This document shows, one piece after another, positions 7,795 through 8,475 of a stretch of 64,000 nt of DNA. The number at the start of each line of letters is the position of its first letter. Position 1 is the first letter of the stretch. The DNA is from a virus (lineage: Duplodnaviria > Caudoviricetes). The position numbers were made by a program, and so were the translations under genes. The DNA lies in the IMG/VR virus record IMGVR_UViG_3300028601_000022, positions 78,807 to 142,806 of that record; one strand, written 5' to 3'. The notes beneath the pieces were generated by a model. That model was not told the DNA's origin and searched no databases. It saw only the letters and a program-made list of their open reading frames with translations.

Positions 7795-8475
7795 CTATGC
7801 TACAAGATTATACCAGGCGATGTAGGAGCAGGAGCTTGAAGAACTGGAAGAGCAGGAACTGGAAGAACTCGAGGAGCACGAGGAGCTGGACGAGCTGGAC
7901 GAGCAAGACGAGCAAGTAACTGCCATCGCGCCCCAACTGACAGAGCAGGGGGCGGCTTTGTATGCGTCGATGCCGTCCTTCAAAGCAGCCAACATGCCGG
8001 TAATGTCAGAAGCCTTGATGGGCTCAAGTTCCGACGGCTCCGTGATTGCAGGAAGGGGATTGTTCACAAAGCAGCGCGAAGTGAGGCCATTCGTGGGGTT
8101 TGTAACCACCACAAAGCGCACCGAAGTGTAGGTGGCCAGGCATGTAAGGAAGTGAATCAGACCCTTCAGAGTGATAAGGTTGTCCATCTTGGACGCAAAC
8201 CCGTTTTCATTGATGAAGGTGTTCCATGCCGCAGTGAATGCCGCTGTGGTAACGATGGGTGGGCGGCCAGAGAAGTTAATGTCCAACCTGGCAGCGGCAG
8301 CCTTCAACTGGCCAGTAACCGTAACGGTACGGCCAGTGAAGCTGGGGTCTGTGATATTGCCTTTGTAAACGTCAAGGTTGTCGATAGAGGTCTTGAGGGT
8401 TTCAAAAGCCTCATTAACAACCTGTCCAAACGTAATAACTGCACCGGGTAAAATAGCCATAAGCTCAATCTCCAT
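7795..8475 (-). CDS. protein with C-terminal Cys/poly-Ser tail; candidate substrate of the rSAM cluster
   Basis: ends CSSCSSSSSSSSCSSSSSSSCSSSSSSSCSYIAWYNLVA; lies immediately upstream of the rSAM run. Confidence 0.8.
   Translation of the reverse strand: MEIELMAILPGAVITFGQVVNEAFETLKTSIDNLDVYKGNITDPSFTGRTVTVTGQLKAAAARLDINFSGRPPIVTTAAFTAAWNTFINENGFASKMDNLITLKGLIHFLTCLATYTSVRFVVVTNPTNGLTSRCFVNNPLPAITEPSELEPIKASDITGMLAALKDGIDAYKAAPCSVSWGAMAVTCSSCSSSSSSSSCSSSSSSSCSSSSSSSCSYIAWYNLVA

Follow-up and report, generated by a model that had tools for sequence, protein, structure and literature searches.

We analysed a stretch of 64,000 nucleotides (nt), referred to below as the window, which forms the last 64 kb of IMG/VR virus record IMGVR_UViG_3300028601_000022; the record is that of a T4-like large phage and is about 52% complete. 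On its minus strand the window carries a gene, here named T, for a protein of 221 amino acids (aa) that ends in a run of serine (Ser) and cysteine (Cys) residues and a short hydrophobic cap, and this gene lies beside genes for radical S-adenosylmethionine (radical-SAM) enzymes, which together with it are referred to as the cassette. The order along the minus strand is a 157-aa open reading frame (ORF), a neck/connector-like gene, the gene of a partner protein p, T, radical-SAM orthogroups E and A, a carbamoyltransferase, orthogroup B, a 299-aa protein, orthogroup C and an adenosine 5'-phosphosulfate (APS) kinase (Table 1).

A Ser/Cys-tailed protein encoded with mixed Ser codons

The 30 codons of the run translate to CSSCSSSSSSSSCSSSSSSSCSSSSSSSCS, that is, 25 Ser and 5 Cys. 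This composition and the YIAWYNLVA cap behind it, both described in a first-pass annotation made from the letters of the window, were confirmed from the ORF and by counting codons. All six Ser codons are in use (TCC 9, TCG 5, TCT 4, AGC 3, AGT 3, TCA 1), and each of the five Cys codons is TGC. The run is the only one with Cys among the Ser/Cys runs found in any frame of the whole 142.8-kb virus record; the other runs of at least six residues are mostly pure poly-Ser, antisense or off-frame.

Judging from the sequence, translation of T probably starts at the second ATG, at 8460. A GGAG is located 9 nt upstream of this codon, and the closest homolog (P0001) begins with MAILPG at the equivalent Met, the next relatives showing close variants of it. 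With this start the protein measures 221 aa and its N-terminal domain 182 aa, rather than the 185 aa first assigned to the latter.

Tandem Repeats Finder resolved the tail DNA into imperfect 24-nt units (2.2 copies, 86% match), plus 27-nt and 9-nt units. The C-S7-C-S7 rhythm thus seems to reflect a duplicated unit of 8-9 codons, and the spacing of the run in gene T looks like the trace of an imperfect 24/27-nt duplication. With six mixed Ser codons and only these imperfect units, and no trinucleotide repeat, the run is not a simple slippage microsatellite, as had been stated from the start.

Table 1. Features of the gene T locus and radical-SAM paralogs of the phage. Positions refer to the window, except for the sixth paralog.
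Feature	Position	Strand	Remarks
Gene T, 221-aa Ser/Cys-tailed protein	7795..8460	-	From ORF listing; frame open from 8475
N-terminal alpha/beta carrier domain of T, 182 aa	7915..8460	-	AlphaFold2 (AF2) model
Ser/Cys run, 30 codons, proposed modification core	7825..7914	-	C-S2-C-S8-C-S7-C-S7-C-S
C-terminal hydrophobic cap YIAWYNLVA	7798..7824	-	Stop codon at 7795-7797; family consensus x-F-I-A-Y-M-K-I
Partner p, 173 aa, immediately upstream of T	8541..9062	-	Homolog in 28/29 loci by hidden Markov model (HMM)
Radical-SAM orthogroup E (accessory)	6826..7782	-	CX4CX2C replacing CX3CX2C; C-terminal CGH...CxxC
Radical-SAM orthogroup A (core)	5894..6829	-	CX3CX2C, GGE, C-terminal C-x7-C-x6-C-x2-C
Radical-SAM orthogroup B (core)	3454..4380	-	C-terminal CGH...CxxC
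Radical-SAM orthogroup C (core)	1620..2525	-	Without C-terminal CGH...CxxC
Radical-SAM orthogroup D (core)	28812..29759	+	About 20 kb outside the cassette; overlap with the beginning of a baseplate-hub-like gene (29729-30616)
Sixth radical-SAM paralog, outside the window	G000:C1:14146-15048	+	CX4CX2C, C-terminal CGH...CxxC
NodU/TobZ-type carbamoyltransferase (accessory)	4389..5942	-	PF02543 9.9e-22; PF16861 3.1e-40; phrog_1601 3.4e-72
299-aa lineage-specific protein, not radical-SAM	2534..3433	-	No family; same position in locus L043
APS-kinase homolog downstream of the cassette	562..1089	-	PF01583 6.8e-37; stand-alone
Neck / head-tail connector-like gene, directly upstream of p	9159..10289	-	phrog_17327 2.4e-25

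Selection on the tail and conservation of the cap

The tail was compared with that of P0002, a protein 84% identical to T that is encoded at locus L042. Fifteen of the 30 tail codons differ between the two, and all 15 differences are synonymous, with no non-synonymous change; one of them requires at least two base changes. Outside the tail, the 182 codons of the same pair differ synonymously at 71 and non-synonymously at 33. An independent activated-sludge contig (X2), which spans the whole 2.3-kb stretch, has 14 differences in total and a tail identical at the nucleotide level.

More distant relatives were collected with a profile of the N-terminal domain only, which retrieved 471 family clusters at E ≤ 1e-3. 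Among the matches listed, 72 of 126 further representatives carry a tail; the remainder are mostly fragments, or tail-less or fused forms of the domain. The full pattern of tail plus cap is present in 130 of the 186 family members examined. These 130 tails, with Ser/Cys runs of 6 to 36 residues, amount to 2,808 residues, of which 82.6% are Ser, 16.4% Cys and 1.0% other, and Cys is present in 128 of them. Thr, Ala, Pro, Phe and Tyr, the single-base neighbours of Ser codons, are almost absent; together with the near-constant presence of Cys, this shows selection for the two-letter alphabet. These comparisons indicate that the tail is under selection at the protein level.

The most conserved feature of the 130 tails is the cap (F 82%, I 93%, A 66%, Y 85%, M 72%; consensus in Table 1). 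Such conservation, above all of F, I and Y, fits a recognition motif, as had been suggested for it, or a docking motif.

The Cys residues are less regular. Family-wide, a tail contains between 0 and 8 of them at spacings of 1 to 13 without a mode, and the first fifth of the run is enriched in them. The exact pattern of the window is common only to P0001 and P0002, and nearly to P0003 (at least 76% identity), and the tail of the L043 relative, which is 58% identical, reads C-S2-C-S4-C-S2-C-S4-C-S11-C. On these alignments the 8-residue Cys period is a feature of the lineage and no rule of the family. The first-pass annotation had proposed that this spacing is selected at protein level, and expected homologs to retain both tail and spacing. 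The tail was retained in all 60 homologs found by word search, and the synonymous differences from L042 support selection on its composition; the spacing was kept in close relatives only and is lost beyond P0001-P0003.

The imperfect 24/27/9-nt units, and a tail that is one codon different in length in one relative, are what a slippage artefact or a functionless, non-coding low-complexity stretch might leave behind. Set against the mixture of six Ser codons, the 15 synonymous and zero non-synonymous differences from L042, the occurrence of tail and cap in 130 of the 186 family members examined, and a reading frame maintained as far as the conserved cap, such an origin is so improbable that we give it practically no weight.

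Linkage of tailed proteins to a radical-SAM cassette

To avoid circularity, orthogroup A alone was used as bait, which fetched 25 IMG/VR loci on contigs of 16 to 314 kb, and their content was determined by an HMM census. Twenty-four of these enzyme-fetched loci contain p, at least one tailed protein and four to eight radical-SAM genes; in the single exception, only 637 bp are available upstream of the bait. The suggestion that the tail is a modification core is strengthened by this tie to a radical-SAM cassette. The usual cassette order is p, T, a tail-less paralog of the N-terminal domain, and then the enzymes. When all ORFs were clustered, only the enzymes, p and the N-terminal-domain family proved to be conserved throughout the cassettes, and Ser/Cys runs of at least seven residues, counted in 40 loci, fell without exception (46/46) on proteins of that family.

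Assigned by best match in 29 loci, orthogroup A occurs in 28, B in 28, C in 26, D in 25 and E in 6. The first four are near-universal regardless of the number of Cys in the tail. The idea of one enzyme per Cys was rejected on these grounds, as Cys and enzyme counts are uncorrelated (Spearman rho -0.27, p = 0.17) and equal in 0 of 28 loci; the match of five tail Cys to five paralogs in the window had been flagged as a possible coincidence, and a coincidence it is.

The arrangement extends to distant T proteins, which at loci L003, L012 and L014 are only 25-29% identical to that of the window. The L003 cassette comprises p and two tailed proteins together with one carbamoyltransferase and five radical-SAM genes, and around it lie T4-type genes for portal, prohead protease, gp23 and gp13; L012, on a 285-kb contig, and L014 have the same elements. 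Tail-type genes flank the cassette in further loci. In the window itself the neck-like gene directly upstream of p places the cassette in a region of virion genes, and the order 157-aa ORF, 376-aa ORF, p, T recurs in L042 and, with one extra gene, in L043. The partner p of the window is related to the L012 copy (BLASTP E = 5e-18). It matches no Pfam, PHROG or NCBIfam family and the ESM Atlas gave nothing; a predicted complex of T and p scored 0.01, a value that counts neither for nor against binding.

From the conservation of the tail and from this linkage we infer, with a probability of roughly 55%, that gene T encodes a folded carrier whose Ser/Cys run is the substrate of a phage radical-SAM maturation cassette. 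The T protein is probably virion-associated.

Radical-SAM orthogroups of the cassette

The window was said to contain five paralogs, and this is the right count: four lie in the cassette, and orthogroup D is encoded on the opposite strand. A sixth is located elsewhere in the genome, about 2 kb downstream of a QueD-like gene (11478-11945), and may serve a nucleotide-modification pathway. The 299-aa ORF had been considered as a fifth paralog of the cassette and was rejected after alignment and comparison with other cassettes.

Across 39 sequences of the enzymes, C18, C22, C25, G67 and E68 are invariant and G66 is nearly so, the last three forming the GGE motif. Together with the CX3CX2C motif and a partial TIM-barrel fold, these are the hallmarks of the radical-SAM superfamily. 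Sequence-family models detect the relationship below threshold: the enzymes score 18-22.6 bits with PF04055 (gathering cut-off 29.5), and none of the paralogs reaches a cut-off in Pfam or NCBIfam. A search with orthogroup A returned 719 homologs, the best 120 of which are at least 53% identical.

The AF2 model of orthogroup A (predicted local distance difference test, pLDDT, 92.9) aligned with more than 30 solved radical-SAM enzymes at Z 9-13.6. Its top matches are tied at Z 12.5-13.6 and comprise GDGT-MAS, SkfB, anSME, viperin, ChlB, SuiB, HemN and CteB; those that modify peptides or proteins (SkfB, anSME, ChlB, SuiB and CteB) lie at Z 12.5-13.4. The alignments to anSME and ChlB reach through the C-terminal Cys motif. 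At the level of PDB sequence profiles, YydG/EpeE was the only match below 1e-3 (E = 2.4e-4, 23.8 bits, profile positions 2-175).

At their C-termini, orthogroups A, B, D and E carry only a short motif, CGH-x(n)-C..C-x2-C, with four Cys (C-x7-C-x6-C-x2-C) or three; neither CGH nor CxxC occurs in any of the 23 members of the main cluster of orthogroup C. The SPASM motif consists of seven Cys (CX9-15GX4C...CX2CX5CX3C...C), and twitch and SPASM domains bind auxiliary [4Fe-4S] cluster(s).

The N-terminal domain as a probable carrier

The AF2 model of T has pLDDT values of 80-95 over residues 10-140. The protein belongs to no significant family in Pfam, PHROGs or NCBIfam, and neither PDB sequence profiles nor Foldseek against the PDB yielded anything significant. 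The best hits of its model in the VIA-align wide search (Z 4.5) and in BFVD (E = 0.013) do not rise above noise, so the structural comparison that had been recommended returned no structural-protein relative in PDB or BFVD. The ESM Atlas contained only unnamed viral clusters; one lead from it, to PF27846 'tSAM_targ_Cxxx_rpt', was discarded, as its score of 0.81 is below threshold and in the chance range.

Relatives within the cassettes were more informative. Tail-less paralogs of the domain (about 183 aa) adjoin T in 15 of 29 loci. In P0183, encoded inside a cassette, the domain is fused to a Gly_rich_2 domain (PF21722), and the Gly-rich part also matches PHROG families of the tail-fibre or tail-fibre-assembly type. 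The L014 cassette holds three kinds: a tailed protein (2143-2958), a tail-less one of 192 aa (9402-9980) and a Gly_rich_2 fusion (10001-11725) of 574 aa, including a Gly_rich_2 domain of 380 aa. The domain appears from these arrangements to be a modular carrier. Of the two roles offered at first, leader or structural carrier, the confident fold, the tail-less paralogs in the same cassettes and the tail-fibre-type fusion favour the carrier and not the leader.

This bears on whether T could be a classical precursor of a peptide that is ribosomally synthesized and then modified post-translationally (RiPP), the 182-aa domain being an oversized leader that is cleaved to free the modified Ser/Cys peptide, which could then have an antimicrobial, signalling or anti-defence function. 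A precursor gene followed by several maturase genes is a RiPP-like arrangement, the Ser/Cys core resembles thioether RiPP cores, and leaders of large size have a precedent in the nitrile-hydratase-like ones of proteusins. RiPP precursors are, however, short and lose their leader, whereas T has 221 aa with a folded 182-aa domain. Family searches of the cassette revealed neither a protease nor a transporter, the domain is independently folded, the cassette lies among virion genes, and both the tail-less paralogs at half of the loci and the tail-fibre-type fusion are unexpected for a leader. We therefore regard a classical RiPP as distinctly unlikely.

Accessory genes and the possibility of a glycosylated tail

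Both domains of the carbamoyltransferase score well above their Pfam cut-offs (PF02543, Kae1-like, 78.3 bits against 24; PF16861, YrdC-like, 137.9 against 27), a likeness shared with the NodU/TobZ/CmcH O-carbamoyltransferases. As the NodU equivalog model gave 108 bits against a cut-off of 1000, the assignment is one of family-level membership only. The known substrates of these enzymes are sugars and small-molecule hydroxyls, and to carbamoylate Ser or Cys in a protein would be a novelty. The gene is present in 7 of 29 cassettes, and four of the six loci with orthogroup E carry it too.

Characterised NodU/TobZ enzymes carbamoylate sugar hydroxyls, and O-glycosylation is heavy in the serine-rich repeat adhesins of Gram-positive bacteria. 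The tail could by this token be that of a mucin-like glycoprotein with O-linked glycans on Ser and S-linked glycans on Cys, the NodU-type enzyme carbamoylating the sugar and the radical-SAM enzymes tailoring sugars. We hold this to be very unlikely, since Pfam and PHROGs identified no glycosyltransferase among the scanned cassette genes or in the 15 kb downstream, the carbamoyltransferase is missing from 22 of the 29 cassettes, and the minimal conserved set consists of p, T and four radical-SAM enzymes.

A counterpart of the 299-aa protein occupies the equivalent place in L043 (36% identity, E = 1e-57). No family match was obtained for the 299-aa protein, to which the proteins encoded at that place in the L012 and L014 cassettes are not similar. 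For the APS kinase, no counterpart was annotated by Pfam among the called genes of L003, L012, L014 and L043, and no sulfotransferase, ATP sulfurylase or 3'-phosphoadenosine-5'-phosphosulfate (PAPS) reductase was present among the scanned genes near it. By this comparison it is probably lineage-specific and outside the core. Both it and the carbamoyltransferase were rejected as core parts, being missing from most cassettes.

A further protein, of 329 aa, occurs within the radical-SAM array of 17 of 29 cassettes (e.g. L017:8997-9986 and L012:12279-13241) and is absent from the window. Among its invariant positions are an E-H pair, a D, a D-Y pair and T-x-H, and it gave no Pfam, PHROG or PDB sequence match.

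Is the tail modified?

The most serious competitor to a modified tail is that T is simply a structural protein, of the fibre, neck or decoration type. Its Ser/Cys run would then be a flexible spacer left unmodified, or an element sensitive to redox state or metals, with disulfides or thiolate ligands, and the cap a docking strand; the enzymes would act elsewhere, on DNA bases, nucleotides, glycans or lipids, and be merely co-transcribed with the late genes. In favour of a role in the virion are the structural surroundings, the paralogs without a tail and the fusion to a Gly-rich domain, and enzymes that do not act on peptides are among the best fold matches of orthogroup A. The sixth paralog adjoins a QueD-like gene. 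The window also contains a thymidylate-synthase-family gene (15457-16251, plus strand; phrog_85, 1.3e-12); if this is a hydroxymethylase, the carbamoyltransferase could act on a DNA base instead of the tail. Modified DNA bases have been named as substrates of some phage carbamoyltransferases. Ordinary linkers, however, are not built of two residues, and 99% of 2,808 tail residues are Ser or Cys, with Cys in 128 of 130 tails. Moreover, linkage to the enzymes in 24 of 25 loci, at T identities down to about 25%, is tighter than co-expression of late genes would require, and no genes other than those of the tailed protein and p are conserved along with the enzyme genes. On balance we consider an unmodified tail improbable, though more probable than a RiPP or a glycoprotein.

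Several observations nevertheless weigh against the tail being the substrate of the cassette. Synteny alone is no proof of an enzyme-substrate relation, and the literature searched yielded no biochemical or mass-spectrometric datum. The enzymes have no SPASM match in Pfam or NCBIfam and no canonical SPASM motif, and no RRE/PqqD family was found by Pfam and NCBIfam in the scanned cassette proteins, where a divergent RiPP recognition element (RRE) is possible. Viperin, whose substrate is a nucleotide, and GDGT-MAS, whose substrate is a lipid, tie with the peptide maturases at Z of about 13. The pLDDT of T falls below 50 in tail and cap, with no docking mode visible. In this genome orthogroup D stands outside the cassette and the sixth paralog beside the QueD-like gene, so some members of the family may serve other pathways; in every other locus that has orthogroup D, it is near the cassette within the fetched locus. 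Finally, transcription is weakly indicated, by short contigs from wastewater libraries that are labelled RNA and may be DNA.

Possible chemistry of the tail

If the Ser/Cys run is the substrate of the cassette, orthogroups A, B, C and D would each cleave SAM to a 5'-deoxyadenosyl radical, which would take the C-alpha or C-beta hydrogen from a tail Ser or Cys. The cap xFIAYMKI, possibly with partner p as a plausible chaperone, would position the tail for the enzymes. This lineage would add further steps through orthogroup E, the NodU-type carbamoyltransferase (plausibly O- or S-carbamoylation of the tail), with the 299-aa protein and the APS kinase perhaps contributing too.

Since the run is 83% Ser, and tails with no or one Cys keep all four enzymes, Ser would have to be the main target; for the latter reason a thioether from Cys to another residue cannot be the whole story. 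Ser and Cys both carry a beta-heteroatom, and both are substrates of anSME-type oxidation; both could also be open to epimerisation and to thioether or ether links, and the data favour no single chemistry. By analogy, L-to-D epimerisation as carried out by YydG/EpeE and PoyD would be one candidate, and cross-linking by thioethers or ethers as in sacti-, ranthi- and rotapeptides another of equal standing, each of them unlikely on its own. Oxidation to formylglycine, as by anSME, which takes Ser and Cys, would be less likely still. Something undescribed leads this short list, although we would not bet on it either.

A more specific proposal is that the four phage radical-SAM enzymes turn the poly-Ser/Cys tract of a virion protein into a non-proteinogenic polymer. 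We put this forward tentatively and think it less probable than the general assignment of the tail as a substrate. Candidate forms are a D/L-mixed, a cross-linked or an oxidised backbone, carbamoylated in some lineages.

Comparison with known systems

The thioether RiPPs (sactipeptides with SkfB, CteB and AlbA; ranthipeptides/SCIFF with PapB) resemble the phage system in that an encoded, Cys-rich C-terminal core is found next to its radical-SAM maturase(s), and SkfB (Z 13.4) and CteB (Z 12.5) are among the best fold neighbours of orthogroup A. Their precursors, however, have about 50 aa, in contrast to 221 aa with a folded domain in T, and are served by one maturase, as compared with four maturase orthogroups in the phage cassette. 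The phage core is 83% Ser and may have no or one Cys, the enzymes have no recognisable RRE, no canonical SPASM motif and no NCBIfam maturase match above noise, and the host is a phage.

YydG/EpeE of the Bacillus subtilis epipeptide (PDB 8ai1-8ai6) is likewise compact, with about 320 aa and a C-terminal auxiliary-cluster region, and besides being the best PDB profile match of the phage family it was found by Foldseek at E = 2e-5. Unlike in the phage system, its substrate is a short peptide that is epimerised at Val and Ile; identity is only 15-17%, and the score lies far below the family threshold.

anSME (PDB 4k36) acts on a folded protein and oxidises both Cys and Ser to formylglycine. Because it accepts either residue, oxidation of this type would explain a tail of Cys and Ser only. 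Its alignment to orthogroup A is one of the two longest (271 residues, model positions 6-311, Z 13.4). It differs in having a full SPASM domain with two auxiliary clusters, in its (C/S)-x-P-x-R target motif, which does not occur in a tail that has neither Pro nor Arg, and in the ratio of one enzyme to one site, compared with four enzymes for a homopolymer in the phage.

The nearest published architecture is that of the HXS antiphage system, which comprises HxsA with His-Xaa-Ser repeats, the radical-SAM enzymes HxsB and HxsC and the small HxsD (PMC13128918). It shares with the phage cassette a folded protein with low-complexity repeats, more than one radical-SAM enzyme and a small accessory protein; it differs in being a bacterial defence system and in having HxS repeats rather than a Ser/Cys run devoid of His. 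The phage paralogs matched none of the NCBIfam Hxs models, which does not support membership in HXS.

Genome setting and distribution

The window further encodes a UvsX-like recombinase, a single-stranded DNA-binding protein (SSB), a family-B DNA polymerase, a Dda-like helicase and baseplate-hub-like genes, and the large terminase lies downstream. Searches of 50,697 GenBank phage records with T, by DNA comparison and tblastn, returned none, with the same outcome for radical-SAM A. Among 185,579 GTDB species genomes the radical-SAM family occurs in only nine contigs of metagenome-assembled genomes, of mixed taxonomy, three of which (245-283 kb) are probably binned phages. Near-identical DNA was found in runs of several studies on landfill, which is probably the source, on activated sludge and on wastewater.

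A scan for T4-type late promoters (TATAAATA) produced two matches against 0.9 expected, neither informatively placed, and scans for sigma-70 promoters and terminators remained at the level of shuffled sequence.

Two other genes of the window deserve mention. The SSB (40003-41541, plus strand) is gp32-like (phrog_15004) and is extended at its C-terminus by about 250 aa, in which acidic (D/E) blocks alternate with basic SKKSKSKKSSKKRR-type blocks in about six repeats; to this extension the region owes its strong AT skew and its antisense frames of poly-Ser. A 768-aa protein (26439-28745, minus strand) has a transglycosylase/endolysin-like segment at residues 180-348; it lies beside the baseplate genes and is probably a tail-associated lysin.

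Significance

Full-text literature searches found no description of the phage cassette, which is widespread and undescribed in phages. The general kind of system, radical-SAM maturation of an encoded tail, is known; the enzymes, the proposed substrate and the context are new, and so, probably, is the chemistry. The minimal set comprises six genes (p, T and radical-SAM A-D), and the last 40 or so residues of the proposed substrate form a peptide amenable to mass spectrometry.

Should the assignment of the Ser/Cys run as a substrate be correct, giant phages of gut, rumen and wastewater would carry their own multi-enzyme radical chemistry for protein modification. The enzymes would constitute a new radical-SAM family without a characterised member, with 719 homologs of one orthogroup alone, and the 471 clusters of tailed proteins and their relatives a new class of substrate, probably with a new Ser-directed chemistry. 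If the tail is in addition converted into a polymer, this would be a new class of post-translational modification and T the first phage structural protein known to be rebuilt enzymatically. A product displayed on the virion could bear on the survival of the phage against proteases, or on its attachment, in anaerobic, protease-rich habitats.

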